In this document: positions 3,485 to 32,796 of the stretch, piece by piece
Layout: every line of letters starts with the position of its first letter
How positions within the stretch are numbered: the stretch's first letter is position 1
NCBI RefSeq assembly: GCF_011421635.1
Contig: NZ_WTLI01000007.1
Span: 42,232-106,231, forward strand
DNA length: 64,000 bases
Reading direction: 5' to 3'
Source: Paenibacillus turpanensis
GTDB lineage: Bacteria; Bacillota; Bacilli; Paenibacillales; YIM-B00363
Notes under the pieces: generated by a model
The model's input: only the letters and a program-made list of their open reading frames with translations
Database searches by the model: none
Told to the model about the DNA's origin: nothing
Program-made: the position numbers and the translations under genes

Positions 3485-4813
<1,329 letters not shown>

Positions 4814-4831
4814 TCACCGAATATAGAAAAA

Positions 4832-4871: not shown

Positions 4872-4934
4872 GCAAAGCAGCTTGGACCCTGTTTGAACAA
4901 TATAGGCTCCAAGCTGCTATATGTACATGGAAAA

Positions 4935-5465: not shown

Positions 5466-5468
5466 TTC

Positions 5469-7759: not shown

Positions 7760-7818
7760 TGTTGATCTCTCCTTTATTTGGGTTTACTCCTTGTATATGC
7801 ATTGTTTTATCAATATAA

Positions 7819-7833
7819 TCGTAATAATTACGA
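7819..7833. promoter_or_regulatory. Zur box (perfect 7-1-7 palindrome) in the divergent promoter region
   Basis: TCGTAATAATTACGA, extended aATCGTAATAATTACGAAt. Lies between the divergent starts at 7759 (-) and 7897 (+). Confidence 0.7.
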
Positions 7834-7896
7834 ATAAACAAAAACAGATAAGATTTGGGCTTGGTTTTGTCCAAAAAGAAGGGAGGAAGCATCCCC

Positions 7897-8253
7897 ATGA
7901 CAACATGGAATCTGCAGCAAACTCAATGCCATTTCCTACTATGTAACGGTGGAAGTTGTATGAAGCAGGGCGGTGAGGAAGTAACCCAAGCGATTCGGGA
8001 CGAGGTCACAAAGCTGGGCGCCGATAAGCTCATTCATACGACACGGACGCGCTGCAATGGTCGCTGTGCAGATGCTTGCGTCGTAATCGCTTATCCACAG
8101 GGAGTATGGTACAAGAACATTACCCCTGAAACAGGCAGGCTGCTAGTCCACAAGCATTTGGAAGGGAGCCGCCTGGAGGAGCAGATCGTTTACTCGTACG
8201 AACGGGAGTTTATTGCTTCAGGCTTATCCATCGAAGGTATAGCAAAGGGGTAG
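7897..8253 (+). CDS. Thioredoxin-like [2Fe-2S] ferredoxin (NuoE-like fold)
   Basis: Cys pattern C-x4-C ... C-x3-C (CHFLLCNGGSC ... RCNGRCADAC). GGGAGG RBS before the ATG at 7897. The ORF track's longer start at 7855 lacks an RBS. Stop is 7 nt before COG0523 paralog 3. Confidence 0.7.
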   Translation: MTTWNLQQTQCHFLLCNGGSCMKQGGEEVTQAIRDEVTKLGADKLIHTTRTRCNGRCADACVVIAYPQGVWYKNITPETGRLLVHKHLEGSRLEEQIVYSYEREFIASGLSIEGIAKG

Positions 8254-17497: not shown

Positions 17498-17859
17498 GGG
17501 GGCGTTTTTGGATTCGACGGGGATAGTTCGAGCATGGGTAGCGGGTAGTGGGGACGCGTCCACTTCAACAACGCTAAAGCCTATTAAATGGCAAAGCTAA
17601 CACTTCCTACGCTGTAGCAGCTTAATAACCTGCACGCGTGCTCTATCTCTGTATCGCCCATGTACCGGGAATAGGGCTCAACCTTAAGTGGGATACGCCG
17701 TTTGGTCTCCGCCTGGGGTCGACGGAAGAAGATAATCAGGCTGACCCAACGCAGAGCCGGTTACGGGGCGCTGCTCGGGTGACATCAAAACTGTGACTAC
17801 ACCCGTAGAAGCCTATGTGGCGTTGTCTTCGGACAGGGGTTCGACTCCCCTCGCCTCCA
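17498..17859 (+). ncRNA. ssrA: tmRNA (transfer-messenger RNA)
   Basis: 5' GGGGGCGTTTTTGGATTCGACGGGG. Tag reading frame GKANTSYAVAA followed by TAATAA. 3' T-arm and acceptor GGGGTTCGACTCCCCTCGCCTCCA. The 7-bp acceptor stem pairs 17498-17504 with 17852-17858. Confidence 0.9.
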
Positions 17860-18071: not shown

Positions 18072-19193
18072 GTGGCCGGTAATATTACAAAAGTCGGGAC
18101 AAAATTCAGGGTAACCTTCGATTTCGGAAGAGACAGTTCAGGGAAACGAATCAGACAATATACTACTGCCTCGTCCGAAGCAGAAGCCAAGAAGCTGCTG
18201 AATGAATTTGAGTATAATCAGCAGCGCAACCTACTCGTCCAGACATCTAAAATGACCTTTGCCGAGTTTTTGGAACACTGGATGGACAACTACGTGAAAT
18301 ACAACTGTGAAGAAACAACCAAGTACTCCAATGAAAACATCATTTATAATCATGTGGTTCCCTATCTCGGGGCCATCGAACTTCAGAAGCTTCAGCCGGC
18401 ATTTATTCAACAATACTACAAGCATCTGATGGATGACAAGGGCTTGAAACCGAACACAGTACATAAGCATCATGCATGTATTCGCAAGGCGTTGGATTAC
18501 GGACTGAAGCAGCAGTTCGTACACAGGAACGTATGTGACGCGGTCACACTACCCAAGAAAGAGCGCTTTGTTGGTCAATCCTATACCAGAGATCAGCTGA
18601 ATAGACTGCTTGATGCCGTCAAGGATACAAGGCTGGAGCTGCCGGTACATCTCGCCGGGTATTTGGGCTTGAGAAGAGAAGAAATCATGGGGCTACGATG
18701 GAAATACGTTGATCTTGATGAGAGGCTTATTCATATCGTAGAGGTTCGTACCTGTGCGGGCAGCCAAGAGGTTGTGAAGACTCCAAAGACGGAGAGAAGC
18801 AGAAGAGTACTCTATATTACAGATGAGCTGCTGGAGGTTCTCTTAAAGGTAAAGGAGCGGCAGGAAGCGAACAGACGTATTCTGGGCGACGAATATTTTG
18901 ATAGTGACTACGTATACGTTCAAGATAACGGCAAGCTTTATCGGGTGAATTCTGTGACGGAACGGTTTAAGGAGTTTCTGGAAAAGAACAACTTCCCGAA
19001 AATCAGGCTTCACGATTTGAGGCATACCTTCGCAAGCATCCTGTACGATGCGGGGATTGATTTGAAGGCCATCTCGGAGGCGCTGGGGCATTCCGATCTA
19101 GGGACAACCAACAAAATCTATACCCATCGGTTCGATAAGACGCATAAGAAGACTGTATCAGCAATGAGCCAGGCGCTGGGAAGACGGAACTGA
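18072..19193 (+). CDS. int: Tyrosine-type site-specific integrase (phage integrase family)
   Basis: 373 aa. N-terminal SAM-like domain, C-terminal catalytic domain with LRHTFAS...GHSDL...IYTH. GTG start with GAGGTGG RBS. Confidence 0.9.
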   Translation: MAGNITKVGTKFRVTFDFGRDSSGKRIRQYTTASSEAEAKKLLNEFEYNQQRNLLVQTSKMTFAEFLEHWMDNYVKYNCEETTKYSNENIIYNHVVPYLGAIELQKLQPAFIQQYYKHLMDDKGLKPNTVHKHHACIRKALDYGLKQQFVHRNVCDAVTLPKKERFVGQSYTRDQLNRLLDAVKDTRLELPVHLAGYLGLRREEIMGLRWKYVDLDERLIHIVEVRTCAGSQEVVKTPKTERSRRVLYITDELLEVLLKVKERQEANRRILGDEYFDSDYVYVQDNGKLYRVNSVTERFKEFLEKNNFPKIRLHDLRHTFASILYDAGIDLKAISEALGHSDLGTTNKIYTHRFDKTHKKTVSAMSQALGRRN

Positions 19194-19262: not shown

Positions 19263-19442
19263 TTAAGCAATCAATTGCTTCTTCACCCAGTCTTCGAGCT
19301 CCTGCAGAGGGATTCGGATCTGCTTACCAATTTTGATATGAGGAACGCCGCCGGTTCGAATCAGTTCGTACATCACATTGCGGCCAACACGGAGGATCTC
19401 TCTAGCCTCATCGATTGTCAAAAGTTTAGTTTGTTGATTCAT
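19263..19442 (-). CDS. xis: Excisionase / AlpA-family HTH DNA-binding protein
   Basis: 59 aa, MNQQTKLLTIDEAREILRVGRNVMYELIRTGGVPHIKIGKQIRIPLQELEDWVKKQLIA. Classic Xis/MerR-like HTH. Below the 60-aa cutoff, so absent from the ORF track. Coordinates checked against the frame of the overlapping + ORF. Confidence 0.75.
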   Translation of the reverse strand: MNQQTKLLTIDEAREILRVGRNVMYELIRTGGVPHIKIGKQIRIPLQELEDWVKKQLIA

Positions 19443-20028
19443 ATGAATCGTGCTCCTGTTCGTATAAGTATAGTTGGTGCTGTGATCCCCCTTTCAGCCG
19501 CCATCATCTAAGGGGGTGGCGGCATACGATTTGTTTTTTTGAACGCAAAAAAGCCCATTTCAGCAGCAGAAGAAAGGCTTTCTACCAGAAATGGGCTTTG
19601 GTATACATAGGTGATCAAATTAATAGGATACAAAAAGATAAATTAGAACATCAATTAGAATGTTTCCGTCCGTCTGGTCGGAAATTGTGAAAGGGATAAA
19701 ACAAGTGGTATAGATTAAGTATATTGTCTGCTCTTAGTTGAGTCAAGCGTACTTTATAGGAGTAACGGTACATTAAGGTATGTTCATCATTTATGTTTAC
19801 TTAGGTTGTTACTTATTTGTTGTATATTGTAAATAAATAAGCATTATAGTTAGTGGATTTATATAACAAACATGTAGAAATGATTCATTAAACTGCTATA
19901 TTTCCAATGGAGGGTTATGTAAAATTATGTAGAAATATTAGATGATGTTCTTATGAAAGTAAAAAACCGTTAGACAAAGAACTGTTCCTTCAGGGGAAAA
20001 CTAAGGAAATAGGAGCCGGTGAAATAAC

Positions 20029-20787
20029 ATGGAAATTACTCAACCTAATAGACCCAAGAGAAATGATTTCAGTAAAACAACTACTTTAAAATTAGTAAAA
20101 CGTGCCGGTGCCATGTGTTCCAATCCAAAATGCAAAATACTAACGTTTGGTGCTGTTGATAATGAAAATGAATCATACGATGTTGGTGAAGCTGCACATA
20201 TTCATGCTGCCTCAAAAAATGGGCCACGATACAATAAAGAATTATTAAAGTCTTATGTTACAAGTTTAGAAAACGGGATTTGGCTGTGTAGTAATTGCCA
20301 TGATATGGTTGACACTGCCTTTGAATCGTACTCAGCAGAATTGCTTAGGAAATGGAAAAATGACCATGAAGAAGAAATGAAAAAATACGGCGGGAAAAAG
20401 ATACTTAAAACAAACGATGAAAGTCTAGCAAAATTAATCATAAGCAAATATGAAAATACTGGTGCGTTGTATTTATTAGAAGAGGCTGAAAACCCCCACT
20501 TTGTAATAGATTCATTCATAAAAATGAGGCATGATCTCGTTGAATGGCAAAGCGAAAAGTATTCACCATCCATTGAGTTTAAAAAACACTTGAAGAAGAT
20601 GGCGACAGCACTTCAAAAGTTCTGTAATAATCCAGATAATGACTTGACTAAAAAGGGGAATTGTATTTTTGAAAATATCTTAAATTTTAGAAAAGAATAT
20701 GGCTTATATATAAAGTGGATAGTTGAAACATACAAAATTGAAGTAGAAGCTAGTTTGCAGTCAATTTTTTTGGAAGCAGAAGTCTGA
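20029..20787 (+). CDS. HNH-nuclease-domain protein with unknown C-terminal domain (AT-rich cargo gene A)
   Basis: N-terminal C-x4-C ... AAHIHAASKNG ... N ... WLCSNCHDMVD motif. About 160-aa C-terminal region of unknown fold. GC about 30%. Confidence 0.6.
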   Translation: MEITQPNRPKRNDFSKTTTLKLVKRAGAMCSNPKCKILTFGAVDNENESYDVGEAAHIHAASKNGPRYNKELLKSYVTSLENGIWLCSNCHDMVDTAFESYSAELLRKWKNDHEEEMKKYGGKKILKTNDESLAKLIISKYENTGALYLLEEAENPHFVIDSFIKMRHDLVEWQSEKYSPSIEFKKHLKKMATALQKFCNNPDNDLTKKGNCIFENILNFRKEYGLYIKWIVETYKIEVEASLQSIFLEAEV

Positions 20788-20855
20788 ATCCCGTAAATGA
20801 TTGGCAATTTATTTTGCAAAAAATGAATTTTACTCAAAGTTAAGATTGCGCCGAA

Positions 20856-21674
20856 ATGGGAGAAGACATGAGTTCAAGAAAAAAAATACCTCAAGATGTA
20901 GAAACAGATGTTTTAATAAAATCAAAAAGAAGATGTTGTTTGTGTTTTGGTATTCAAAATGACCTTGATGAAAAGAATGGCCAGATTGCCCATATTGATA
21001 AAAATAGAGATAATAATAACTTTGATAACCTAGCTTTCTTATGTTTTAATCATCATGACAAATACGATGCAGTTACTAGTCAAAGTAAAAACTATACAAA
21101 AAATGAGGTTAAAAGATATAGGGATGATTTATACGGATATTATGAAAAACTCTATGATAATGACATAAGTAATAATGATTTTCTTGATTACTTAAATAAA
21201 ACAATTAGAATTACTTCGGAAAGACATGAGGTAAAAGATAATAAAGTTATAGTAACAGTAGATAACCTTGAATTGATGAATTCTAAAACAATTGAACTGG
21301 AGTTATGGAATGATGGTAAATACGAATTAGTAATAAATAAAATCATTATGCAGAATAAACTCCCGTTCCATTATAGTAGTGAACATTGGACTCCCCTTCC
21401 CTTTAAAGGATCCGATAAAGACAATACTTTTACGTCAATTAGATACATAAACAATCATTTTCATGGTTTTGAAATAGAAAGTAATAAGTATATCAACTTA
21501 TATTATAATTTCCCACAATTAAGGATAGGCTTTGCAAAGAAAGTGTACACCTTTCAATTTGATTTTTTGGTAGACATCACCATACCCTCGAAATCATTCA
21601 ATTATAAAATAACGGATGTTTCAAGAGAAGTCATGAAAACCATTTATTTTGATTTTGTTCTAAATGACGATTAA
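20856..21674 (+). CDS. HNH-nuclease-domain protein with unrelated unknown C-terminal domain (AT-rich cargo gene B)
   Basis: RRCCLCFG ... QIAHIDKNRDNNNFDNLAFLCFNHHDKYD. The internal ATG at 20868 has a GGGAGAAG RBS and is the likely true start. C-terminal 180 aa unrelated to gene A. Confidence 0.6.
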   Translation: MGEDMSSRKKIPQDVETDVLIKSKRRCCLCFGIQNDLDEKNGQIAHIDKNRDNNNFDNLAFLCFNHHDKYDAVTSQSKNYTKNEVKRYRDDLYGYYEKLYDNDISNNDFLDYLNKTIRITSERHEVKDNKVIVTVDNLELMNSKTIELELWNDGKYELVINKIIMQNKLPFHYSSEHWTPLPFKGSDKDNTFTSIRYINNHFHGFEIESNKYINLYYNFPQLRIGFAKKVYTFQFDFLVDITIPSKSFNYKITDVSREVMKTIYFDFVLNDD

Positions 21675-21774
21675 CTTAATTCTGGGATATTAAATATTTA
21701 GTGTAATATAAATTATAAAGAAATAACATAAATTCATAATATAGGTAATACGTGTGTGATCATAGAGACTGTAA

Positions 21775-23126
21775 AATATTTTGTGTAAACTCTCAAAACC
21801 AAATCTAGTAAACTAGAAGAAAGGTCGGTTTGAGAGGATGACACAAGTGGCACGGTTTAGCAAGGAACAGGTAAAAGTATTCGTTAAAGAAAACAACCTG
21901 AAGACCATGGATGACGTACAATCTGCACTCAAGGAATTGTTTGCAGAGACGCTTCAGTCCATGCTGGAAGCCGAACTCGACACGGAACTCGGTTACGAGA
22001 AGCACGATGTGAAGAGCAAGGTGACCGCTAACAGCCGCAACGGCAAAACGAAAAAGACCGTCATTAGCGAATATGGTGAAGTGGAGATCCAAGTTCCGCG
22101 TGATCGTAACGGTGAGTTTGAGCCCATGATCGTGAAGAAGCATCAGTCGAATGTGACGGGGATCGAGGACCAGATTATCGCCATGTACGCCAAGGGTGTA
22201 AGTACACGCGACATCCAAGACCATCTGAACCGGCTCTACGGTATTGACGTCTCTCCTACGATGATCTCAAACGTAACCAACAAGATCGTACCTTTGATCA
22301 AGGAGTGGCAGAATCGCCCGTTGCAAGGCGTATATGCCGTTGTGTTCCTGGATGCCATTCACTTTAAGGTCAAGCAGGACGGAGCGATTGTGAACAAGGC
22401 GGCCTACATGGTCATCGGGATTGATCTGGATGGCAACAAGGACGTGTTGGGCATGTGGATTGGCGAGAATGAGTCCGCCAAGTTCTGGCTCAGCGTTCTT
22501 AACGATCTCAAAAACCGCGGCGTACAAGACATCCTCATCACATGTGTAGACAACCTGACGGGCTTCTCTCAAGCGATTATTGCCTGCTATCCGAAGACCG
22601 AGATCCAGAAGTGTATTATCCACCAAATCCGAAATTCCACGCGGTACGTGTCCTACAAGGACTTAAAGAGGGTTACTGCCGACTTAAAGCCGATCTATAA
22701 AGCCGCTACAGAAGAGGCAGCCTTGGTCGAACTGGATCGTTTCGAAGAGGCATGGGGAACCAAGTACCCGCTCATTATCCGCTCCTGGCGTAACAATTGG
22801 GACGAGCTTGCTACGTTCTTCAAATATCCCCCAGAGATCCGGAAACTCATCTATACGACCAACATCATTGAGAGTTACCATCGCCAACTCCGCAAAGTCA
22901 CCAAAGGAAAAAGCATCTTTCCCTCCGACGAAGCGTTGTGGAAGATGCTCTATCTGTCCACCATGGATGTGGTTCGGAAATGGACGGGCCGGGTTCAGAA
23001 CTGGGGACAAATGCTGTTACAGCTGTCCGTCTTTTTCCCCGATCGGGTCGGTCAACATTTACGGTAGGTAGGCCAACTCCCCCTCCCCGGGGGAGTTCCC
23101 TATAAATGAGTTTACACAAAATTATT
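21775..23126. mobile_element. IS256-family insertion sequence
   Basis: Single mutator-type transposase. Terminal inverted repeats AATA-TTTTGTGTAAACTC (left) and GAGTTTACACAAAA-TTATT (right), a 14-bp perfect core. About 1.35 kb, typical for IS256. No clean 8-bp target-site duplication was resolved. Confidence 0.8.
21838..23067 (+). CDS. IS256-family transposase (mutator type)
   Basis: 409 aa. Conserved IS256 transposase layout with a DDE region. Confidence 0.92.
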   Translation: MTQVARFSKEQVKVFVKENNLKTMDDVQSALKELFAETLQSMLEAELDTELGYEKHDVKSKVTANSRNGKTKKTVISEYGEVEIQVPRDRNGEFEPMIVKKHQSNVTGIEDQIIAMYAKGVSTRDIQDHLNRLYGIDVSPTMISNVTNKIVPLIKEWQNRPLQGVYAVVFLDAIHFKVKQDGAIVNKAAYMVIGIDLDGNKDVLGMWIGENESAKFWLSVLNDLKNRGVQDILITCVDNLTGFSQAIIACYPKTEIQKCIIHQIRNSTRYVSYKDLKRVTADLKPIYKAATEEAALVELDRFEEAWGTKYPLIIRSWRNNWDELATFFKYPPEIRKLIYTTNIIESYHRQLRKVTKGKSIFPSDEALWKMLYLSTMDVVRKWTGRVQNWGQMLLQLSVFFPDRVGQHLR

Positions 23127-23170
23127 GACAGACCCTGATCATATAATTTGATTACTTGGCTTATATAAAT

Positions 23171-23200
23171 CCACAAGCGATAATGCTTGTGGATTTTTTG
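23171..23200 (+). terminator. Hairpin terminator just outside the IS256 right end
   Basis: CCACAAGC-gataat-GCTTGTGG followed by ATTTTTTG. Confidence 0.5.
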
Positions 23201-23290: not shown

Positions 23291-24556
23291 ATGGCAATCG
23301 TCCAAATCAGATCCACCAATCCGCAGTTTTCATTTTTGATCAAGAAAAATCCGAACACTGGCATGCAGCTTCGCTCGATCCGCAGGGGCATGGCGTACGG
23401 CTGGTACACGGATGAACAGACGTATAACGTGTATTTCAAAGATGCGGACAATGAGATTTCCTATAAACAGCACGAAAATGACAACTTCGAATATCTGAAC
23501 GTGTCGAGGTACAATACACCCTTGTTTCCGCTGAATGCAATTAATGAATTTTTCTCTGCACCGCTTAAGGCACAAGACGAACGTGATGGTGACGGCTATG
23601 AACATACCTTTTTCATCAATATGATACATATCGAACTCGTCCGGTATATTGACTACTTCGAAAAGCATCTCAAGGATTTCACTTTCGAAATCACTCATCA
23701 TGCGCATAAGAGCTACTCTCTCACCGTTACGACGCAGAAGAGTCTATACCAATTGCTCCATGTGGTTAGTGTATTATGCTTATTCCTCTCTATGTTCGGA
23801 AACGAATATATCGATATCTCGGAAAGCATCCTGGATAAGTACATTAAGAGCATGAATGTGATAGATGCGCCGTTTTATATTCGCAGCCTGTTTGTACGAA
23901 ACTTCCTGAACTCCAGAGACCGGTTTCAAAAATACAAAGCGGAGCTTGAGAAAACGGGACGCTATGAAATTCGATTCGCATACGGTGGCACAGCGCTGCA
24001 GCGGAGAAATTATATCGGAAGCGTGCTGGCTTTTGATAAGTCGATCTTGGACGTGGGCTGCGGAGAAGGATTCTATGCGATTCCTTTTGCGGGGAAAATT
24101 GAAGGCAGCTATTATGCGGTTGACGTTAATGAGGAGCTGCTGGAGAAGGTACAGCGTAAAGCGGAGGCCAAAGAGATCGATAACATCGTTACATTCGGCT
24201 CAATTGACCAATTCCTGGAGAGCTACAACGGGGAGCAGGTTGATGTGATCCTGACCGAGGTTATCGAACATATGAGCCAGGATGAGGCTAAACAGCTGAT
24301 TCACCAGATTTGTACTCATGTTGATTTTGACAGATTCATCATTACGACGCCTAATGCCGACTTTAACCGCTTCTACGAGCTGAGCGACTTCCGGCATGAT
24401 GATCACAAGTGGGAAATGGGCCAAGAGGCGTTCCAACATTGGATGCAAGATGTCATCCATGATACGAATTTACATGCCGAATTTGTTGCTGTCGGGGACG
24501 GCGTGAACAATATTCAAACTACACAGGGTGTTATTCTCAAGAAAAGGGGGGCCTGA
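23291..24556 (+). CDS. hen1: Bacterial Hen1-type RNA 3'-terminal 2'-O-methyltransferase
   Basis: 421 aa. C-terminal class I SAM methyltransferase (ILDVGCGEGFY, AVDVNEELL, ILTEVIEHM). N-terminal domain of about 240 aa. Adjacent to Pnkp with a 3-nt gap, the hallmark Pnkp/Hen1 pairing. Confidence 0.8.
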   Translation: MAIVQIRSTNPQFSFLIKKNPNTGMQLRSIRRGMAYGWYTDEQTYNVYFKDADNEISYKQHENDNFEYLNVSRYNTPLFPLNAINEFFSAPLKAQDERDGDGYEHTFFINMIHIELVRYIDYFEKHLKDFTFEITHHAHKSYSLTVTTQKSLYQLLHVVSVLCLFLSMFGNEYIDISESILDKYIKSMNVIDAPFYIRSLFVRNFLNSRDRFQKYKAELEKTGRYEIRFAYGGTALQRRNYIGSVLAFDKSILDVGCGEGFYAIPFAGKIEGSYYAVDVNEELLEKVQRKAEAKEIDNIVTFGSIDQFLESYNGEQVDVILTEVIEHMSQDEAKQLIHQICTHVDFDRFIITTPNADFNRFYELSDFRHDDHKWEMGQEAFQHWMQDVIHDTNLHAEFVAVGDGVNNIQTTQGVILKKRGA

Positions 24557-24559
24557 TCG

Positions 24560-27145
24560 ATGGATATCCAAACGAAGGTTCACACGATTTTCATGCTGGT
24601 TGGGTCAACGGAATGCGGCAAAACAACGTTCGCTAAGGAGGTACTGATTCCCGGTCTGCGATTTGAGGATATTAACCGGGGTGTCAGGGCCAATGTACAA
24701 TATTTATCCTCAGACCAGATCCGACAGGAGGTCCTTGGGTATGAGTATGACAAGTACGATCAGGTCATGCTCGAGGCTAGCGAACAAGCCTTTCACCTTT
24801 TATTTGAAAGATTGAGGATGACGACGTCTTTTCCGATCAATGCAGAGTTTGTTGTCGTAGATACAACTGGGCTCTCCGAGGATTTCCGGGCTAAGGTAAA
24901 GGAAATTGCATTTCAGAACAACTATAACCTTGAGGTCATCGTCTTCGATTACCGAAAGCGGGAAGATTACTATGCGTCGGAGCGCTCCAAGAAACTGATC
25001 ACCAATCACATCAATAGGCTGAAAAAGGAGGTCCTCCGCACGCTGCCCCGCGAGGGATACGGCAAGATTCATAAAGTGCGTGCAAAAGACTTTTATGTGG
25101 CCGAGGAGAGAAGGGCGAATCCCGAGTATAAAGTGATCACCGAAGATGTGGATGCGTACTTGGCGAGTATTCTCCCCCAGGACCAGCAGTACATTATAAT
25201 CGGTGACGTTCACGAATGTGTGGAGGATCTGAAGGGGCTGCTGCTCGACCATGGTTACAAGATCGAAGCAGGAAAGCTGGTCGTGGCTGATAAGCTGAAG
25301 CATACGAAGCTGATTTTGGTTGGCGACTGGATTGACAAGGGCAAGCAGACGAGGGAAACCGTCGAGTTTCTGTATGATAACCAAGAACATTTTTACTTTG
25401 TGCTTGGGAACCATGAAAATTTTGTTAGCAAGTACATCAAGGGTGAGATTAGCAGTGTTGATCAAGAGCTGCTCGAAACGTATTTTGACTCGACGCAAAT
25501 ATTACTGAATGATCCTGAACTGCTGCAGAAATTTGAACATCTAGTCTCGATCTCGAAGCCATTTTATCGGTATGTTGGGGCCAGGGGGTCATCCTTCTAT
25601 GTCACTCACGCTCCATGCCGGAACAAGTACATCGGTAAGCTGGATACGAATTCGGTCCGGCATCAAAGGAATTTCCGAATCGACCGGGATGCTCCACTGG
25701 AGGAGCAGCTTGTTTTTCTTCAGGAGGAATCGGTCAAAAACCATCCCTATCACATTTTCGGACACGTCGCGGCAAAACAGTCTTTCCGGATCGGAAATAA
25801 GCTTCATATCGACACGGGCAGCGTACATGGCAATCTCTTGACCTCTGTCTCGATTTCGTATAAACCGTTTATGAAGTCTCATAAGTCCAGACAAGCGGTG
25901 ATTACCGAGGAGCTGCAAACCTTATTTAAAGTGGAACGAAAGGTCTCCATTCAAGATCTTGGGGAGGATGACATCCGCCGACTCCACTACTGCTCGCGTA
26001 ATAAAATCAATTTCATCTCCGGCACGATGTCTCCGGCGGATAAGAACGACGAGACGAATGAACTCGAGTCGCTGAAGCGAGGTCTTGATTATTTCCGGGA
26101 GCACGGTGTTCAGCAGGTGGTGCTGCAGCCGAAGTATATGGGATCCCGATGCAACGTGTATCTGCATAAGGACCTGGATCAGTGTTATGCTGTCAGCCGC
26201 AATGGTTATAAGATTAACCAAGTCGATTTGACGGAGATTTACGGCAAGCTGCTTCATAAATTCGGTGAGTATATGGAACAACGGAAGATTGCCATGCTCA
26301 TTCTGGATGGAGAGCTTCTGCCGTGGAAGGCGCTCGGTGAAGGGTTGATCGATAGACAGTTCAAGCCCATTGAGAAAGCGCTGGAGACCGAGTTGACCTT
26401 TCTGCAGCTACACGGCTTTGAAGAAGCATACAACAAGCTTATTGCCAAATACGAAGCAAGCGGATTTGAAAAGGACCAGCATCATATCGGAAAATCCGCC
26501 TTAAGCGAGAAGTATGGTCCAAGTGTGTACCAAAACTATAAGTACGTCCATGAGATTCAGGACACGTATGTCCCGTTGTCGGGGCATATGGAGGCCTATC
26601 AAACGTACAGAAGACAGCTGGAGCTGTATGCAGAAGATGAAGCAATGACGTATAAGCCGTTTGCCTTATTAAAGATCGTATATGAGGACGGGATCGAAGA
26701 AATTCCGGCATGGAAGACCTCCGAGATGTACGGATTTCTGTCGGAGGACGTGGGACCTGTACTGGATCTCTCCGAGCCGGGGTATCTGGAGCAGGCGGAG
26801 CTTTACTTTTCGAAGCTGACGATGGAGAACCATATGGAGGGGATCGTAATCAAGCCCGAGCTGTGGAACGGTAAAACGGTGCCTTATATGAAGGTGCGAA
26901 ATCCCGATTATTTGTCCATCATCTATGGGTACGACTACAAGTTTCCGCACAAGTACCGAAAGCTGCTCAAGCAAAAGAATGTGAATCAAAAGCTTCGTAC
27001 CTCGCTTAATGAGTACCAGCTGGGAATGCAAATGCTGGCGGTGCCATTGGATGAGATTGCGCCTGAGCATGTTGCCTATAAGGAGATCGCTGCTAATCTC
27101 TTGTTTGAAGTTGCACAGGAGCGGGAGATCGATCCGCGTTTATAA
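24560..27145 (+). CDS. pnkp: Polynucleotide kinase-phosphatase-ligase (Pnkp) of the Pnkp/Hen1 RNA repair system
   Basis: 861 aa, tri-domain. N-terminal P-loop kinase GSTECGKTT. Central calcineurin-type phosphoesterase with GDVHEC, GDWIDKG and GNHEN. C-terminal adenylyltransferase/ligase-like domain with a candidate motif-I lysine in PKYMGSR. Size matches Clostridium-type Pnkp at about 870 aa. Confidence 0.85.
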   Translation: MDIQTKVHTIFMLVGSTECGKTTFAKEVLIPGLRFEDINRGVRANVQYLSSDQIRQEVLGYEYDKYDQVMLEASEQAFHLLFERLRMTTSFPINAEFVVVDTTGLSEDFRAKVKEIAFQNNYNLEVIVFDYRKREDYYASERSKKLITNHINRLKKEVLRTLPREGYGKIHKVRAKDFYVAEERRANPEYKVITEDVDAYLASILPQDQQYIIIGDVHECVEDLKGLLLDHGYKIEAGKLVVADKLKHTKLILVGDWIDKGKQTRETVEFLYDNQEHFYFVLGNHENFVSKYIKGEISSVDQELLETYFDSTQILLNDPELLQKFEHLVSISKPFYRYVGARGSSFYVTHAPCRNKYIGKLDTNSVRHQRNFRIDRDAPLEEQLVFLQEESVKNHPYHIFGHVAAKQSFRIGNKLHIDTGSVHGNLLTSVSISYKPFMKSHKSRQAVITEELQTLFKVERKVSIQDLGEDDIRRLHYCSRNKINFISGTMSPADKNDETNELESLKRGLDYFREHGVQQVVLQPKYMGSRCNVYLHKDLDQCYAVSRNGYKINQVDLTEIYGKLLHKFGEYMEQRKIAMLILDGELLPWKALGEGLIDRQFKPIEKALETELTFLQLHGFEEAYNKLIAKYEASGFEKDQHHIGKSALSEKYGPSVYQNYKYVHEIQDTYVPLSGHMEAYQTYRRQLELYAEDEAMTYKPFALLKIVYEDGIEEIPAWKTSEMYGFLSEDVGPVLDLSEPGYLEQAELYFSKLTMENHMEGIVIKPELWNGKTVPYMKVRNPDYLSIIYGYDYKFPHKYRKLLKQKNVNQKLRTSLNEYQLGMQMLAVPLDEIAPEHVAYKEIAANLLFEVAQEREIDPRL

Positions 27146-27152
27146 TCGTGAT

Positions 27153-27192
27153 AGAGTGTCTGAGCCATTCTGTGGTTCAGGCACTTTTTTTC
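27153..27192 (+). terminator. Candidate terminator after pnkp (imperfect)
   Basis: GTGTCTGAGCC-loop-GGTTCAGGCAC followed by T7. Two stem mismatches. Confidence 0.4.
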
Positions 27193-27305
27193 GTTGCGGA
27201 ACGTTTGGGTAAGAATTAATTATTCCCATCTTCAGGGCAAAAGGTAAAGGTATAATGAAATTACTAGAAGACGGGAATAAGTTCTACAGGAAGAGAAGTG
27301 TAGCC

Positions 27306-27899
27306 ATGTTAAATCAAGCAGTTGAAAAAAGCTTAAGTAAATTCATGACCAAGATTCTTCGGCATACCCCTGAGGATTTTGGTGTTGTCCTAGATCCCGT
27401 GGATGGTTCGTGTCCGCTAAGCACTTTGCTGGAAGTCATCCAAGCCCAATCTCAATGGGGGTGGGTGAAAAAGGAACATATCGAACAGGTGGTACGCCAT
27501 TCGGATAAGCAGCGCTTTGAGATCGAAGGCGACCGCATAAGAGCCAGGTACGGCCACAGTCATAATAAAGTGCAATACACACCGGGCGTGCCTCCAGAGT
27601 ACGTCTACCATGGCACAAACAAGAAAGCCCTCCCATTGATCTTGAAGGATGGCATACGTCCGATGAGCCGTCAGTATGTTCATTTGTCGGAAGGCACCCA
27701 TTTTGCAGCACTCGCGGGCAGCCGCAGAGGCGAACTGGTGATTCTTAAGGTAGACACCGTAAGCGCACAGCAGCTGGGAGTCACGTTTTATTATGCGGGT
27801 AACGAAGTGTGGTTGGCTAATAGCGTGCCGCCAGGTTGTTGCTCCGTGATGGATAACAAGGAAAAGGAGCACTCAAATCATGAATCATTCAATTATTGA
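27306..27899 (+). CDS. kptA: RNA 2'-phosphotransferase (Tpt1/KptA family)
   Basis: LSKFMTKILRHTPEDFG, HGT..., YVHLSE motifs co-linear with E. coli KptA. Start at 27306 chosen by alignment to KptA's N-terminus and an AGGAAGAG RBS. The ORF track's longer alternative begins at 27255. Confidence 0.85.
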   Translation: MLNQAVEKSLSKFMTKILRHTPEDFGVVLDPVDGSCPLSTLLEVIQAQSQWGWVKKEHIEQVVRHSDKQRFEIEGDRIRARYGHSHNKVQYTPGVPPEYVYHGTNKKALPLILKDGIRPMSRQYVHLSEGTHFAALAGSRRGELVILKVDTVSAQQLGVTFYYAGNEVWLANSVPPGCCSVMDNKEKEHSNHESFNY

Positions 27900-28668
27900 T
27901 ATCGGCATCAATTTGATGCATCGTACATTCCATCAAGATCGTGATCAGGTCGTCGAAAGGGCACTGGACAACCATGTGACACCTCTTATCATTACAGGGA
28001 CAAGTTTGAGGAGCAGTCTAGAAGCAGCACGCTACGCCGGACGGTACCCGGAAAAGCTGTACGCTACTGCAGGAGTTCATCCTCATGATGCGAAGAACTG
28101 CAACGAGGAGACCATCGCGAAGCTGAAAGAATTGGCGGCATTACCGCAGGTTGTAGCCATCGGCGAATGCGGGCTGGATTATAACCGGGATTTCTCGCCG
28201 CGGGATGTTCAGCGCAAATGGTTCACGGAGCAGGTTCAGTTGGCGGTGGAGCTTAAAATGCCGCTGTTTCTGCATGAGCGGGAGGCTTTTTCAGACTTTG
28301 TTGCAATCCTAAAGGATAACGCGGTTCAAAAAGCGGTCGTTCATTGTTTTACGGGAACCTATGCAGAGCTTAAAGCTTACCTAGAAATGGGCTTCCATAT
28401 TGGCATTACCGGATGGATTTGTGACGAACGAAGAGGGAAGCATCTGAGGGACCTTGTCCGAATGATTCCGCTCGACAGGCTGATGATCGAGACGGATGCC
28501 CCCTTTCTGACTCCGCGGGATCTAAAGGAAAAGCCAGCGGAGGGACGGAACGAGCCTGCATTCCTGCCGCACATTCTGCAAACCGTAGCAACATGCATCG
28601 GCAGACCCGTGGAAGAGGTTGCTAAAGCGACAACGGAGACTTCAGTGGACTTTTTCGGTCTTTCGTGA
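27880..28668 (+). CDS. tatD: TatD-family metal-dependent hydrolase/nuclease
   Basis: 262 aa. HxH start (MHRTFH), VHPHDAK, GECGLDY, ETDAPF. Overlaps the kptA 3' end by about 20 nt, implying translational coupling. Confidence 0.85.
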   Translation: MNHSIIDIGINLMHRTFHQDRDQVVERALDNHVTPLIITGTSLRSSLEAARYAGRYPEKLYATAGVHPHDAKNCNEETIAKLKELAALPQVVAIGECGLDYNRDFSPRDVQRKWFTEQVQLAVELKMPLFLHEREAFSDFVAILKDNAVQKAVVHCFTGTYAELKAYLEMGFHIGITGWICDERRGKHLRDLVRMIPLDRLMIETDAPFLTPRDLKEKPAEGRNEPAFLPHILQTVATCIGRPVEEVAKATTETSVDFFGLS

Positions 28669-28698
28669 TCACAAGAGGAAGTTCAAAGGAGGACAGGA

Positions 28699-29943
28699 GT
28701 GCGATTAAATCAATTTCGTTATGATTTGGCCCGCGGGTTAGGGAGCGTCATGCTTTACTTGAAGCAATCTCCCAGACTCGCTAATAAGCATATTGATGCT
28801 ATATATCATGCTTGTATCAAGAATACCGCTTATGACCCCCAATGTGATATAAGCAGGGAAGATTATCTTTGGGAGATCATTCAGCTCTCCGAAGAATCCG
28901 AACAGCTACAAAAACGGATACTCGCCGCCTTGGAGAGCGATATAGATGGTTGGGATTTGCTGCAGGTATACCGCTTAGCGAAAATTTTTGCCCTTAAAAG
29001 TCATTCAACAGCAGTAGAAGCCATGAAGAAAGGATTCCGTTACCACGAAGATTGGAACAGCTTCATTGGCGGGGAAGAGATCATAGCGGTTGAAGGGGAG
29101 CAGGGCTTCTTGTTTGTGGCAAGCCGAATTGGGGAGCAAATATTGTCCTCCGACTATGAGGAGAGTAAATTTCTGCTGGAGTTCGCATATGAAAAAATAG
29201 GGGAAGAAAAGGTGACGGCTCTCCTTGAGAGCCAAGGTGATGCGAATATTCAGGCATTCGTGCAATCGTCAGTCCACCAGCAAGAATATACCCAATCGAA
29301 GCCGCTTCACATAGTGTCTTACAATGAGTTGAAGTCGACCATAGGAACGGGATCTGGAGGTCTATATCGCTACACCAGATGGGGGAAGCATGCCTCTAAA
29401 GAAGATCTGTTAAAGGCAGCTAACGATCTGCTGCAAGAGAGTAATTCAAAAATACTATTGCCCTATCTCTATATCTTCGCCAAAGCGGTTTTCCCGCTTG
29501 ATCCACAAAAGCTAATTGAATTAGCGGGTTCGAAAAATAGGCGTTTGCGCTCGCAGGCCATTAGAGTCCTAAGTAATATTAAGGATGAGCGGATCCACAA
29601 GCTTGCGATTAAGCTTGCCACGGAGCGGGCAACTGAAATTGATGCATTGGACCTTTTTATCCACAATTGTTCCGATGAAGACGTACACCTATTCGAGCAA
29701 ATTGTTTTCAAGAATCATAGTAGGGATACGTTTCATAGTGCTGGGTTCAGCATTCTTAAAATATTCGAAAATAACCGAACTCCATTATGCCGGAAGATTC
29801 TAATTGAACTTTATAAGAAGGCACTTTGCACCTTTTGTCGACAGCGCAGTGTAGAAATCATGGTACTAAATGGCATACTGCCGGATTCTATTCAAAATGA
29901 AATCCTGCACGATTGTAATCCGGATATTCGTGTCTTGGGATAA
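28699..29943 (+). CDS. Hypothetical alpha-helical (HEAT/ARM-like?) protein in the RNA repair cassette
   Basis: 414 aa, no recognisable catalytic motifs. GTG start with AAGGAGGA RBS, 30 nt after tatD. Lower GC than neighbours. Confidence 0.6.
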   Translation: MRLNQFRYDLARGLGSVMLYLKQSPRLANKHIDAIYHACIKNTAYDPQCDISREDYLWEIIQLSEESEQLQKRILAALESDIDGWDLLQVYRLAKIFALKSHSTAVEAMKKGFRYHEDWNSFIGGEEIIAVEGEQGFLFVASRIGEQILSSDYEESKFLLEFAYEKIGEEKVTALLESQGDANIQAFVQSSVHQQEYTQSKPLHIVSYNELKSTIGTGSGGLYRYTRWGKHASKEDLLKAANDLLQESNSKILLPYLYIFAKAVFPLDPQKLIELAGSKNRRLRSQAIRVLSNIKDERIHKLAIKLATERATEIDALDLFIHNCSDEDVHLFEQIVFKNHSRDTFHSAGFSILKIFENNRTPLCRKILIELYKKALCTFCRQRSVEIMVLNGILPDSIQNEILHDCNPDIRVLG

Positions 29944-29982
29944 GAAGCACAAACGCCGGGCTTCCATGACCGGCGCATTTAC

Positions 29983-30270
29983 TTATTTTCTTCTATAGTA
30001 CCTTTCCCAATCTTGAATGACTTCTGCTTTATTCAATAACCGCTTCCTCAGGCACTGGGATGTTTCCCATTCATGTATTGCTTGCTGCTTTGTTTTGAAA
30101 AAGCGATAGTCACAGATATTCCAGGAGCAGAACAGCTTTCGGTACCATTTACCGTTTTGGACATTACCAGTGAAACGGCGAACAGCCTTATTTGCTTGTC
30201 GTTTGCTCCAGCGGGTGCCGGGTGTATGATGGTCTTTCCATGCGGGTGATTTTTTCACACTATTACTCAT
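29983..30270 (-). CDS. Hypothetical small basic protein
   Basis: 95 aa. AAGGAGGGG RBS 8 nt upstream on the minus strand. No recognisable family. Confidence 0.45.
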   Translation of the reverse strand: MSNSVKKSPAWKDHHTPGTRWSKRQANKAVRRFTGNVQNGKWYRKLFCSWNICDYRFFKTKQQAIHEWETSQCLRKRLLNKAEVIQDWERYYRRK

Positions 30271-30934
30271 TTGGCTCTCTAACCCCTCCTTACGGGAAGC
30301 TAGAGACCGTCTAATTTCTTCATTTACTCACCTCATCCAGAGTATAATGGCTTTTGAAAGTATTAAACGCTAACCATGAATATATGTTTCTTAGTGGATT
30401 TGTCTATAATGATTCTTTACTAACACTGGTCACAAGATATAGTACGATTTAGTTGGATTTTTTATGGAGGAAAGTGCATGAGGTTCCTATTTTGTTTTCA
30501 TTGACCTTTATCCTTTTCATCCATACTTTACTCCTCCAAGTTACGAAGATAGCTCTTTGTCGGCCGTAACAACCCCATAACGTTCCAAAGTTTTCGTCTA
30601 TGCTTCGAGCATTCTCCTCCTCAAATGATTACCCTCGATAACCCGAACCAGAACCCGATTCCCGTGAAAACGGATTTCTTCAGTCGGTTGCTCATAAAGG
30701 CTTGATACCGGGTGTGATACCGGAGCAAATACCATACCTGTTTGATCATGGAGTGTAGCAGCATAACTGCTGCCGATTGAAAGCACCGCTTGTCAGCATC
30801 AGCATCCGCAGGAACTGGATTTGTTTATCAAAAGCTCTCCTCTCCTTAACCAAAAGAATTATCCGCCCAAAATACATTTTCTTCCATTTTGATAGGGGTG
30901 GGATTTGGGTGAAATGGAAAAGTTTATGCCGCCT

Positions 30935-30957
30935 CGTAATACTTTCGCCATGTTCGT
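30935..30957 (+). repeat. 23-bp direct repeat, copy 2
   Basis: CGTAATACTTTCgCCATGTTCGT, 22 of 23 identical to 23214-23236. Together the two copies bracket the hen1-pnkp-kptA-tatD-orf414 block. Confidence 0.6.
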
Positions 30958-31107
30958 TCCGGTAGAAAGGTGCGATTATAGAACCTGTAAGACACAAGGT
31001 TCTTATTCGGACGGTCGTAACGAGGCAGGGATATCGTTGTATCCCGCAGTGCCGTGCCTGTTAGGCTGCGGTATCCTGTACAATCGGATCGGATGGAGTC
31101 CACTATT

Positions 31108-31131
31108 TGGGGTTCGATTCCCCACTCGCCT
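31108..31131 (+). repeat. attR-like imperfect copy of the tmRNA T-arm and acceptor 3' end
   Basis: tGGGGTTCGATTCCCCaCTCGCCT versus tmRNA aGGGGTTCGACTCCCC-TCGCCT. A T-loop sequence TTCGATT is present, but no matching 5' acceptor strand upstream, so it is not a full tRNA. It is followed at about 31141-31170 by a tRNA-Lys-like D-loop and anticodon-arm fragment (TGGTAGAGCACTCGACTTTCAATCGAG). Confidence 0.5.
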
Positions 31132-31442
31132 TTGACGCGATTCTGGTAGAGCACTCGACTTTCAATCGAGCGAAAAAGTTGAAGAAGGACCAAAGGATAG
31201 AATCCCTGGCGGCTAGCATATGCGCACTGCAGCTCAGCCATGTAATCCGTGGATACCGATGAGCGGAACGCCGAAGACTTTTTTGGGATGGAAGAGACAA
31301 AAGGTTGGCTGAACGAGGGTCAATCTTCTGAACCCGATGTCCTTCAAAAACACCGTCAGACCGCTTATCTCAAACGGGATTCCGCCGGAGCTGCAGTGGG
31401 ATTCTTTCATCCAATGGTCAAATCATGAAGGGGGTAACAAAG

Positions 31443-32558: not shown

Positions 32559-32586
32559 AGGAGATCGAATCGGCTGTTGGTGCTGA

Positions 32587-32718
<132 letters not shown>

Positions 32719-32796
32719 ATGAGCGGGATCATAAGCTGCGTGAGGCAAAAGGATTGTAGAAGAAGTGAATGATTGATGGATACAGGAGTTGATCTT

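Follow-up and report, generated by a model that had tools for sequence, protein, structure and literature searches.

Two adjacent predicted HNH-nuclease genes, one carrying a divergent DUF6650 domain, in a low-GC patch of Paenibacillus turpanensis

The DUF6650 effector ThsG of type VI Thoeris responds specifically to 2′cADPR and has been modelled as a homo-hexamer, and the mechanism by which ThsG effectors without membrane helices kill was not known to the authors of that work (bioRxiv 10.64898/2025.12.03.692087). A DUF6650-like domain is also found in DS-27, which combines it with SMEK and, encoded by one gene only, gives protection in E. coli (DefensePredictor, PMC13092281); its similarity to DUF6650 is remote, and the authors give an HHpred value of 0.88 (PMC13092281). 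In a 64-kb stretch of DNA, referred to here as the window, we analyzed two neighboring genes, ORF-A and ORF-B, whose source is Paenibacillus turpanensis, since each product is 100% identical to a protein of that species. ORF-A is predicted to join an HNH nuclease domain to DUF6650, a fusion of which no description was found in PADLOC-DB v2 or the searchable literature. We judge it rather probable that the segment consists of two evolutionarily independent single-gene nuclease cassettes, adjacent by chance and probably co-transcribed, ORF-A being a DUF6650-gated nuclease and ORF-B a separate one-protein system. The features of the locus are as follows.

17498–17859, plus strand: tmRNA gene (ssrA), found by ARAGORN and matching Rfam RF00023 with 190 bits
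18072–19193, plus strand: tyrosine integrase (Pfam Phage_integrase, 3e-27, with SAM-like N-terminal domains)
19263–19442, minus strand: excisionase-type HTH_17 protein of 59 aa (Pfam HTH_17, 4.6e-16; weak Tn916-Xis match)
19544–19599, minus strand: intrinsic terminator hairpin upstream of xis, with a 12-bp outer stem and a 7-bp inner stem, then a U-run
19600–20028, plus strand: AT-rich intergenic region upstream of ORF-A, 27–33% GC in the composition profile
20029–20787, plus strand: ORF-A, 252 aa
20029–20379, plus strand: predicted Cap5/SPARHA-type HNH nuclease domain, ORF-A residues 1–117 (Pfam, PADLOC and PDB matches)
20380–20787, plus strand: predicted divergent DUF6650 (ThsG-type) helical domain, ORF-A residues 118–252 and stop
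20856–21674, plus strand: ORF-B in its longer reading, 272 aa
20868–21143, plus strand: predicted compact HNH module, ORF-B residues 1–92 in the 268-aa model (C23xxC26, H42, N54, C59xxH62-H63)
21204–21674, plus strand: acidic, family-specific Ig-like beta-sandwich, ORF-B residues ~113–268 and stop
21765–23135, plus strand: IS256/Mutator-family insertion sequence of 1371 bp, with its transposase at 21838–23067 (Pfam Transposase_mut, 2.8e-118)
23167–23200, plus strand: intrinsic terminator, a 12-bp stem then a T-run, dG −17.5 kcal/mol

Much of the outline drawn in an earlier note on this DNA was borne out. It had described two intact ORFs of 252 and 272 aa on the same strand, both with HNH motifs, in an AT-rich segment of foreign composition between an integrase/excisionase pair and an IS256 copy. 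The ORFs are present as described, except that ORF-B more probably has 268 aa; Pfam matches identify the flanking elements; and the catalytic and zinc-binding residues of both HNH motifs are intact. The GC content is 33.3% for ORF-A, 27.6% for ORF-B and 34.6% for the intergenic region upstream, against a window mean of 49.4%, while the integrase, excisionase and insertion sequence have 46–49%, so that a low-GC patch (28–35%) with both ORFs sits between the tmRNA-side integrase/excisionase and the IS256-family element. This composition and the adjacent integrase support the conclusion that both genes are horizontally acquired low-GC cargo, and the note's view of them as defence-type cargo is consistent with the mobile-element and defence-type neighborhoods in which relatives are found.

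To the left, the integrated element is bounded by the 3′ end of the tmRNA gene. For attR, we searched the window with exact 14-mers of the tmRNA 3′ region, with the 24-nt 3′ end allowing up to 3 mismatches and by repeat finding, and no convincing second copy of the tmRNA 3′ end was obtained; a 31-nt match at 36027–36057 was rejected as attR because it does not extend. DNA similarity searches, of the cassette against plasmids and of the integrase region against phages, gave no match. In keeping with the IS256 family, the insertion sequence encodes a Mutator-type transposase and has terminal inverted repeats, and it is flanked on both sides by an 8-bp target duplication, TGATCATA (21757–21764 and 23136–23143). 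No terminator-like site was found in the gap separating ORF-A from ORF-B or immediately beyond ORF-B, and the terminator at 23167–23200 is probably the original one of the ORF-A/ORF-B transcript, parted from ORF-B by the IS insertion.

Upstream of the genes, the hairpin that had been assigned to their leader does exist, with 12-bp arms at 19550–19561 and 19588–19599, a dG of −27.8 kcal/mol and a z of −3.83, none of 200 shuffles being equally stable. Its T-run, nevertheless, follows the stem on the minus strand only, which makes it a minus-strand intrinsic terminator outside the leader of the HNH genes; together with the lack of any Rfam match for 19550–19599, this rules out a leader or riboswitch function. 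The region at 19600–20028 is presumed to be the promoter region of ORF-A and contains one sigma-70-like match with a TG extension (19875–19902), although such matches are no commoner than in shuffled sequences.

The N-terminal half of ORF-A was assigned from motif, Pfam and PDB evidence, which places it in the HNH (beta-beta-alpha-metal) nuclease superfamily. The motif reads C30-x4-C35 ... A-H57-I-H59 ... N82 ... C87-x2-C90-H91, in which C30, C35, C87 and C90 form the zinc finger and H57, N82 and H91 are the HNH residues; C30, C35, H57, N82, C87 and C90 are invariant across the family. The protein scores 22.4 bits against Pfam HNH_2 (cut-off 21) and matches PADLOC models of CBASS and Shedu HNH effectors, including SAVED_HNH and SduA-HNH, and the PDC-M68A model, at 1e-12 to 6.5e-26. 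Its family profile finds PDB entries at 4e-16 to 3e-8, led by 9om4 (4.4e-16, residues ~10–110) and including Cap5 (7rwk, 7rwm, 8fm1). On this evidence, ORF-A is predicted to be a Cap5/SPARHA-type HNH nuclease with intact catalytic and zinc-binding residues.

[quoted passage not shown] Run directly on the two ORFs, Pfam, NCBIfam and PHROGs gave weak HNH matches only and left both C-terminal halves unmatched; ORF-A alone had no local match to Pfam DUF6650 (PF20355) at E≤10, and its relatives reached only 0.0045–0.24. Membership in DUF6650 holds at the family level: among 1.84 billion representatives, a profile built from the C-terminal domain alone recovers genuine DUF6650 proteins with E down to 1e-15, of which 10/10 were above the Pfam cut-off, and PF20355 is listed for ORF-A in the precomputed Pfam column of the protein collection. 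ORF-A keeps the core DUF6650 residues E154, S162, R167, R221 and G225, and the arginines conserved in the EDRR and MRAACRKF motifs are missing from it; ENTG stands in place of EDRR, with T and G for the arginines that are present in 86–96% of stand-alone DUF6650 proteins. Because of these losses, ORF-A may recognise another ligand, or no ligand at all. The monomer model of the domain is a helical bundle (pLDDT 62).

Of the 150 best-scoring representatives, at least 17 clusters carry the HNH-DUF6650 fusion, and elsewhere DUF6650 is joined to SMEK, TIR, transmembrane helices or an Mrr-type nuclease. Such a range would be expected if a sensor were combined with exchangeable effectors, and it argues that DUF6650 is a sensing/assembly module and that the toxic activity comes from a swappable partner. 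ORF-A is most likely a nuclease gated by its own DUF6650 domain. The N-terminal HNH would be the killing part and DUF6650 the regulatory and oligomerising part, which would hold back nuclease activity until infection is signalled, either by a small nucleotide such as 2′cADPR or by a phage-derived trigger. The signal would then lead to assembly or a conformational change of ORF-A, upon which the HNH domain would cut DNA indiscriminately and the infection would be aborted.

For ORF-B, ATG 20868 is most likely the start (20868–21674, 268 aa), because a GGGAG ribosome-binding site lies 5 nt upstream, the NCBI model has 268 aa and all homologues start at that column. In this numbering its motif, C23-x2-C26 ... 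A-H42 ... N54 ... C59-x2-H62-H63, is invariant in 23 sequences, which supports a prediction of an HNH-type nuclease with intact catalytic and zinc residues, the HNH assignment lying below curated thresholds: 16 bits against Pfam HNH_3 (cut-off 24.8), 1e-5 against the phrog_333 HNH, and best PDB matches to Cap5 7rwm (E=0.088) and 9om4 (E=0.76). The HNH region was modelled poorly (pLDDT 30–40). Compared by hhalign with the HNH of the ORF-A family, it gave E=0.005 but a probability of 7%, and another profile comparison gave 0.17%; the two HNH domains appear related only through the common motif, the same best PDB matches and bridging tblastn matches, in which both ORFs hit one shared HNH gene in each of two loci (L085 and L088).

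The C-terminal domain of ORF-B gave a confident structure model of a beta-sandwich and no specific fold match. This Ig-like domain is confined to 14 protein clusters, a small Bacillota family, and the named relatives are Bacillota; it is acidic in nearly all members (pI ~5–5.8). In all hosts the gene has 24–31% GC, even where the host itself has 46–47%. The HNH module is joined elsewhere to many other C-termini, among them a lipase-like domain (DUF2235) and an AAA ATPase. Neighbor clustering of the seven ORF-B-family neighborhoods found no conserved partner gene. Their defence-type neighbors are a type I R-M system with EVE-HNH, Dcm with HinfI, an HNH gene with MutH/NucS-like and Dcm genes, and SIR2_2; three neighborhoods lack recognised defence genes, two being uninformative and one prophage-like. 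ORF-B would act as a separate one-protein system made of a compact HNH module and a family-specific acidic beta-sandwich, the latter most likely a sensing or partner-binding domain.

The ORF-A family was sampled at 42 loci, representing 25 distinct neighborhoods, and neighbor clustering of these likewise found no conserved partner gene. Named full-length relatives are mostly in Pseudomonadota. Some members sit in Tn7-like and ICE cargo and some are lone insertions amid housekeeping genes; neighbors across the family include AAA_15/AAA_21, OLD-TOPRIM, MazG_C, Multi_ubiq with DUF6527, Abi_C, HicB and HipA. In one subgroup only, a 377-aa gene follows the HNH-DUF6650 gene (enterobacterial loci L009 and L011, metagenome contigs L042 and L049). 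The putative anti-phage role of ORF-A and ORF-B is drawn from such neighborhoods and from domain homology.

The earlier note had read the two genes as one cooperative defence or abortive-infection module, either as sensor and executor or as nucleases acting jointly. They lie on the same strand of one low-GC patch, the 80-bp gap contains no terminator-like site, and they have a terminator candidate in common downstream. However, no locus with separate homologues of both was found in the 25 ORF-A-family and 7 ORF-B-family neighborhoods, and this genome is the only one in which ORF-A stands next to ORF-B: among ~15 billion proteins, either exact sequence occurs on just one contig. In addition, the differences in gene GC (33% versus 28%) and in the taxonomy of the relatives indicate separate origins. 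A two-gene module is therefore very improbable, though the 80-bp spacing without an intervening terminator means that a functional interplay peculiar to this genome may exist. Less probable still, and hardly to be expected, is an origin as HNH homing endonucleases left over from a degraded prophage, which the note named as something that would refute its proposal, or from a mobile-intron set, in either case without a function in the host. The adjoining integrase/excisionase could be a prophage remnant, attR being undetectable; ORF-B weakly matches homing-endonuclease or HNH models of PADLOC/PHROG (1e-4 to 1e-5), and one of its homologues lies in the prophage-like stretch. Yet both ORFs are intact and the full two-domain architecture is conserved across the families, neither protein has the location or the NUMOD/AP2-type DNA-binding modules (Pfam, NCBIfam) of phage, intron or intein HNH homing endonucleases, and the relatives are lone genes in Tn7/ICE cargo or beside R-M systems. 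Moreover, tblastn in 50,697 phage records gave no match for ORF-B, and the ORF-A matches fall in P2-like "lysogenic conversion" cargo loci of prophages and not at homing-endonuclease positions.

The two remaining alternatives concern the single proteins. ORF-A could be a Thoeris-like effector without an adjacent partner, for which a TIR protein encoded elsewhere in the genome, or by another element, responds to infection by making 2′cADPR or an isomer related to it, which activates the HNH domain through DUF6650. This agrees with the 2′cADPR specificity of type VI Thoeris, whose effector domain is DUF6650, and with TIR genes directly beside HNH-DUF6650 genes in 2 of the 25 neighborhoods: in L018 the TIR gene is divergent and 530 bp away, and its product shares 32% identity (E 3e-14) with the TIR part of a protein in which TIR is fused to DUF6650, while in L038 the gene is convergent and 243 bp away. 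The other 23 neighborhoods contained no TIR in a Pfam census and a search with a local, not very sensitive TIR profile, and none flanks ORF-A, where the adjoining TIR gene of type VI Thoeris is missing, or was found among the tested ORFs of the 64-kb window; a Thoeris-type trigger would thus be without an identified source here. Considering also that some family members are lone insertions, that ORF-A lacks the EDRR arginines and that two adjacencies could be coincidence, TIR genes being common in defence islands, we regard this explanation as unlikely. We hold equally doubtful the broader proposition that HNH-DUF6650 proteins are nuclease-type ThsG effectors, that is, DNases under the control of a cyclic ADP-ribose isomer, most of which, including ORF-A, have no TIR partner and so would be fired by signals in trans from an unlinked Thoeris TIR, another mobile element or phage infection itself. 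For ORF-B, the alternative is a type IV/McrA-like restriction nuclease acting on its own, whose beta-sandwich would recognise modified or otherwise foreign DNA and guide the HNH domain to it without abortive-infection logic. Against this, an acidic C-terminal domain is unusual for DNA binding, no specific fold match was found, and the occurrence of the same HNH module on DUF2235 and AAA ATPase proteins looks more like an effector with swappable sensors; we find this quite unlikely, somewhat more so than an unlinked TIR for ORF-A.

If the proposition on ThsG-type DNases were true, DUF6650 would be a general sensor of TIR-derived nucleotides, comparable to SAVED in CBASS, on which killing domains (HNH, Mrr-type nuclease, TIR, SMEK, membrane helices) are swapped, and HNH-DUF6650 would bring a nuclease effector into the ADP-ribose-derived immune signalling common to bacteria and plants. 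The output of the fusion, DNA cleavage, is easy to measure, which makes the ligand specificity and assembly of DUF6650 testable in vitro. ORF-B represents a rare Bacillota HNH family with an orphan Ig-like domain and, as a single protein, may be a new phage sensor. Both points are specific and can be tested, and neither alters a major paradigm.

Compared with known systems, ORF-B, a predicted HNH protein with a separate non-catalytic domain, resembles McrA-like/type IV HNH restriction enzymes and Septu PtuB, and it has R-M-rich neighborhoods in its family and a very weak PADLOC match to PtuB (E=0.02); it shows no significant sequence or fold match to either, and its Ig-like domain is acidic. 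Cap5, the CBASS HNH-SAVED effector, belongs to the HNH subfamily of ORF-A and likewise has an N-terminal HNH and a C-terminal ligand-sensing/oligomerising domain, but its sensor is SAVED, whereas ORF-A has DUF6650 and matches only the HNH portions of SAVED_HNH models; nor did domain scans of the neighboring genes find a cyclase (CD-NTase) partner such as that adjacent to Cap5. Among solved structures, the HNH domain nearest to the ORF-A family is that of the SPARHA HNH-APAZ effector (PDB 9om4; PMC12738770), which is activated by assembly and partners a short Argonaute via APAZ, nothing of the kind being present at ORF-A. The best PADLOC match of ORF-A, the PADLOC-DB v2 candidate PDC-M68A (6.5e-26), is limited to profile positions 4–111 of 253, the HNH part, in ORF-A as in four further members of its family (P0004, P0071, P0154 and P0008), and the C-terminal halves differ. 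With ThsG, ORF-A has in common the DUF6650 homology and the core residues named above; ThsG, however, consists of DUF6650 alone or with transmembrane helices and has an adjoining TIR gene, while ORF-A has an N-terminal HNH, no TIR neighbor, ENTG for EDRR, and no counterpart of the N-terminal G..S.P..G..W.P segment. For DS-27, hhalign of the ORF-A family profile against the single sequence gave no meaningful match, so the parallel is drawn from the authors' HHpred result and from architecture only. In that architecture, DS-27 has the one-gene layout of ORF-A, an N-terminal putative effector (SMEK in DS-27, HNH in ORF-A) followed by a C-terminal DUF6650-like domain, and it functions without a TIR partner.

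The island that carries the two HNH genes, ORF-A and ORF-B, is flanked on the left by a tmRNA gene, left of which lie what we take to be the RNase R and SmpB genes, each identified from its own sequence. Its elements and those that follow are:

17498-17859, tmRNA gene, left flank (Rfam, 190 bits)
18072-19193, tyrosine integrase gene
19263-19442, minus strand, excisionase gene (HTH_17, 59 aa)
between the excisionase gene and ORF-A, intergenic region of 586 bp
20029-20787, plus strand, ORF-A (252 aa)
20868-21674, plus strand, ORF-B (268 aa)
21765-23135, IS256/Mutator-family insertion sequence (IS), 1371 bp
23167-23200, plus strand, strong terminator just past the IS (dG -17.5)
23291-34023, RNA-repair gene cluster directly after the IS, comprising:
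23291-24556, Hen1
24560-27145, Pnkp
27255-27899, Tpt1/KptA 2'-phosphotransferase
27880-28668, TatD
28699-29943, 414-aa protein with no Pfam match
31425-32558, SPFH protein
32773-34023, RtcB ligase

ORF-A and ORF-B are of foreign origin. The composition profile showed about 46% GC across the integrase and excisionase genes, 23-36% over 19600-21764 and about 50% again inside the IS, which bears out the low-GC patch that an earlier note, made from the sequence alone, had placed between the integrase/excisionase genes and the IS256 copy. The GC contents of ORF-A and ORF-B are 33.3% and 27.6%, and that of the whole window is 49.4%. Both proteins are 100% identical to Paenibacillus turpanensis records, and the exact sequence of each was found on one contig only in the protein collection. 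The terminal inverted repeats of the IS, which begins 90 bp 3' of ORF-B, are imperfect and its 8-bp target duplication, TGATCATA, is perfect; the element is therefore a simple insertion in the AT-rich patch. No clean attR to mark the right end of the island was found in the window. A 31-nt stretch at 36027-36057 shares 84% identity with positions 17773-17803, inside the tmRNA gene; as the similarity stops short of the tmRNA 3' end, it may reflect chance or the decayed remnant of an old attachment site. Pnkp/Hen1, Tpt1 and RtcB in one cluster near ssrA and smpB form an unusual combination, which may counter ribotoxin damage.

Residues 1-117 of ORF-A are an HNH domain. The Pfam HNH_2 score slightly exceeded the cut-off, and the PADLOC matches, all restricted to residues ~10-120, were far stronger: PDC-M68A (6.5e-26), CBASS "Effector/Endonuclease" and SAVED_HNH models (1e-9 to 3e-20) and the HNH-bearing SduA model (4e-12). 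When compared with PDB, the family profile matched the HNH effector of SPARHA (9om4; PMC12738770) at 4.4e-16, together with several structures of Cap5, the HNH-SAVED effector of CBASS. No member of the family deviates at the four zinc-binding cysteines (C30, C35, C87, C90), at the general base H57 or at N82, and H91 is also present in ORF-A, so the HNH motif proposed earlier holds for ORF-A.

The C-terminal half of ORF-A, which the earlier note had called unknown, proved to be assignable. PF20355 (DUF6650) is given for ORF-A in the precomputed Pfam column of the protein collection; our own Pfam scan returned no DUF6650 for ORF-A and only weak matches for its relatives (E 0.0045-0.24), and a separate profile (A4) was therefore built from the C-terminal domain alone of eight family members. 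Searching 1.84 billion representative proteins with A4 yielded 566 proteins at E<=1e-3, of which 102 reached E<=1e-10, and among the matches listed were many stand-alone proteins of ~155-180 aa. All 10 of the stand-alone matches tested passed the Pfam DUF6650 cut-off (33-91 bits), and thus, by profile comparison, homology of residues 118-252 to DUF6650 is established at the family level. ORF-A retains the most conserved positions (E154, P156, S162, R167, R221 and G225), while the motifs LEDRRVLY and MRAACRKF read YENTGALY and MATALQKF; ED[KR]G also occurs in a subgroup of other HNH fusions. HNH-DUF6650 fusions of this type form at least 17 representative clusters. Other partners fused to DUF6650 among the proteins found with the profile are TIR/SEFIR (P0133, P0145), an Mrr-type nuclease (P0211), membrane helices (P0121, P0152) and a beta-solenoid (P0208), which indicates a modular domain with swappable partners.

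To evaluate the genomic setting of ORF-A relatives, 42 loci with full-length members, representing 25 distinct neighbourhoods, were compared. No neighbour was conserved across the 25, and a Pfam survey of 84 neighbouring ORFs found each family at most three times. The settings include Tn7-like cargo in Pseudomonas, ICE cargo in Pectobacterium, a stand-alone copy inserted between the genes for a transporter and a malic enzyme, and a site adjoining a HipA toxin module; among the genes nearby are AAA_15/AAA_21, OLD-TOPRIM, MazG_C, Multi_ubiq with DUF6527, Abi_C and HicB. In phage records, ORF-A matched solely "lysogenic conversion" loci of P2-like prophages and a few unannotated records. A TIR-domain gene directly adjoined the HNH-DUF6650 gene in only 2/25 neighbourhoods, a count that for metagenome loci is a lower bound because the TIR profile held three sequences; none was found in the 64-kb window. 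With no conserved neighbour and a TIR gene in two neighbourhoods only, the family is mainly a one-gene cassette, and a minority of its members may belong to genuine Thoeris-like pairs.

The two TIR-bearing loci, on unrelated contigs (one from an alphaproteobacterial MAG, the other from a metagenome), may be Thoeris-like pairs in which the effector is a nuclease-type ThsG. In L018 (locus span 3510-5780), the TIR gene is divergent at 530 bp and its TIR is 32% identical (E 3e-14) to that of the TIR-DUF6650 fusion P0145; in L038 (4001-6093), a pentapeptide-repeat-TIR gene is convergent at 243 bp. A beta-strand-rich N-terminus distinguishes one of the two TIR proteins and pentapeptide repeats the other. 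In four loci only, a 377-385-aa protein lies downstream of the HNH-DUF6650 gene on the same strand: the enterobacterial records L009 (Pectobacterium, 6873-8006) and L011 (Lonsdalea, 4385-5542) and the metagenome contigs L042 (4870-5985) and L049 (2288-2695). This protein, whose copies share 66-75% identity with the one in L009, has no match in Pfam or PADLOC and may be a subgroup-specific partner or merely linked cargo.

The start of ORF-B is most likely 20868 (268 aa), not 20856, because it is preceded by a GGGAG ribosome-binding site and is used both in the public gene model and by all homologues. Residues 1-92 carry a compact HNH signature (C23xxC26 ... AH42 ... N54 ... C59xxH62H63), invariant in 23 sequences, so that the motif noted earlier stands here too. 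Curated models matched weakly (Pfam HNH_3, 16 bits; phrog_333, 1e-5; PADLOC homing-endonuclease models, ~1e-4), the best solved relatives of a deeper profile were Cap5 (E 0.088) and 9om4 (E 0.76), and both ORF-A and ORF-B matched the same HNH genes in two loci (L085 and L088). We accept this N-terminus as an HNH domain, with less certainty than for ORF-A. Proteins with quite different remainders, among them a DUF2235 lipase-like domain and an AAA ATPase, share 49-67% identity with this module at their N-termini. Beyond a helical linker, residues ~113-268 are confidently predicted to form a beta-sandwich (pLDDT ~90), acidic in nearly all members, whose profile found only 14 clusters among 5.8 billion; ORF-B is a rare family with an orphan domain. 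All named hosts are Bacillota (Clostridium, Brevibacillus, Bacillus, Peribacillus, Petromonas and Paenibacillus), the genes stay at 24-31% GC in every host, even in Brevibacillus and Paenibacillus, where the loci have 46-47% GC, and 50,697 phage records gave no match.

In all seven ORF-B-family neighbourhoods the gene stands alone with no conserved neighbour. Four contain restriction-modification (R-M) or SIR2 genes within a few kb (type I R-M with EVE-HNH; HNH with MutH/NucS-like and Dcm; Dcm with HinfI; SIR2_2), two are uninformative and one is prophage-like. ORF-A and ORF-B are independent genes, and the two-gene defence module suggested earlier found no support in the 25 and seven neighbourhoods of their families. 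Before the IS arrived they were probably one transcript ending at the 23167-23200 terminator, because no terminator-like site lies between them or directly 3' of ORF-B and a strong one lies beyond the IS.

The hairpin reported in the intergenic region exists (arms 19550-19561 and 19588-19599; z = -3.8 against shuffles), but its assignment to the leader of the HNH genes was ruled out: the U-run is on the minus strand only, which makes it a minus-strand terminator upstream of xis, and Rfam gave no match at 19550-19599. The region's best sigma-70-like match (TTGACT-17-TATACT, 10/12, 19746-19718, minus strand) lies ~120 nt upstream of this terminator (19599-19544), and a short transcript of ~160 nt or an attenuator before xis is possible on the minus strand of 19544-19746; promoter-like matches were not enriched over shuffles.

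Elsewhere in the window, another small HNH endonuclease, the third (152 aa; 1.7e-9 to Pfam HNH), adjoins a MerR-family regulator at 56574-58058, in a further low-GC patch (38% at 57-58 kb). A possible toxin-antitoxin or regulator pair lies at 34460-35022 on the minus strand, in a low-GC stretch (36-43% at 34-36 kb): a small XRE-type HTH protein of 89 aa and, overlapping it, an ORF of 98 aa that weakly matches DUF6442. Within a 1379-aa ORF (43569-47708), 5-6 tandem copies of a ~303-315-nt unit, 63-92% identical, span 44501-46265 and point to a repeat-domain protein, probably at the cell surface; it comes after a protein of 880 aa whose domains are GLUG, Listeria-Bacteroides repeat and dockerin.

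Overall, two independent one-gene nuclease cassettes lying side by side in island cargo are the explanation that we favour with moderate confidence. ORF-B would be an HNH effector controlled by its own Ig-like domain, the main alternative being an McrA-like restriction enzyme. For ORF-A, the fusion of one conserved domain to interchangeable toxic domains is the signature expected of a sensor or assembly module, which DUF6650 would therefore be, and our mechanistic reading is based on this pattern.

In type VI Thoeris, a TIR protein is paired with the DUF6650 effector ThsG; the TIR produces 2'cADPR upon infection, and cells carrying the system stop growing when 2'cADPR is added, but not with 3'cADPR or cADPR (December 2025 preprint, bioRxiv 10.64898/2025.12.03.692087). 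The model of ThsG is a homo-hexameric tube whose inter-protomer pockets are positively charged, some ThsG proteins have N-terminal membrane helices, and the authors describe the toxicity mechanism of helix-less ThsG as unclear (bioRxiv 10.64898/2025.12.03.692087). The DefensePredictor study counts DUF6650 among domains newly implicated in defence, and its single-gene DS-27 (299 aa; N-terminal SMEK, DUF6650 at 169-292, HHpred 0.88) reduces plating of phage RB69 in E. coli (PMC13092281). The searchable literature yielded no mention of ThsG together with HNH, and PADLOC-DB v2 models matched the HNH part alone of the ORF-A family; the HNH-DUF6650 fusion thus appears undescribed in searchable sources. 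With Cap5, SPARHA and ThsG serving as examples, ORF-A would be a non-specific HNH DNase that is gated by DUF6650 and acts through abortive infection, triggered either by a nucleotide signal made in trans or by direct sensing, as DS-27 must do.
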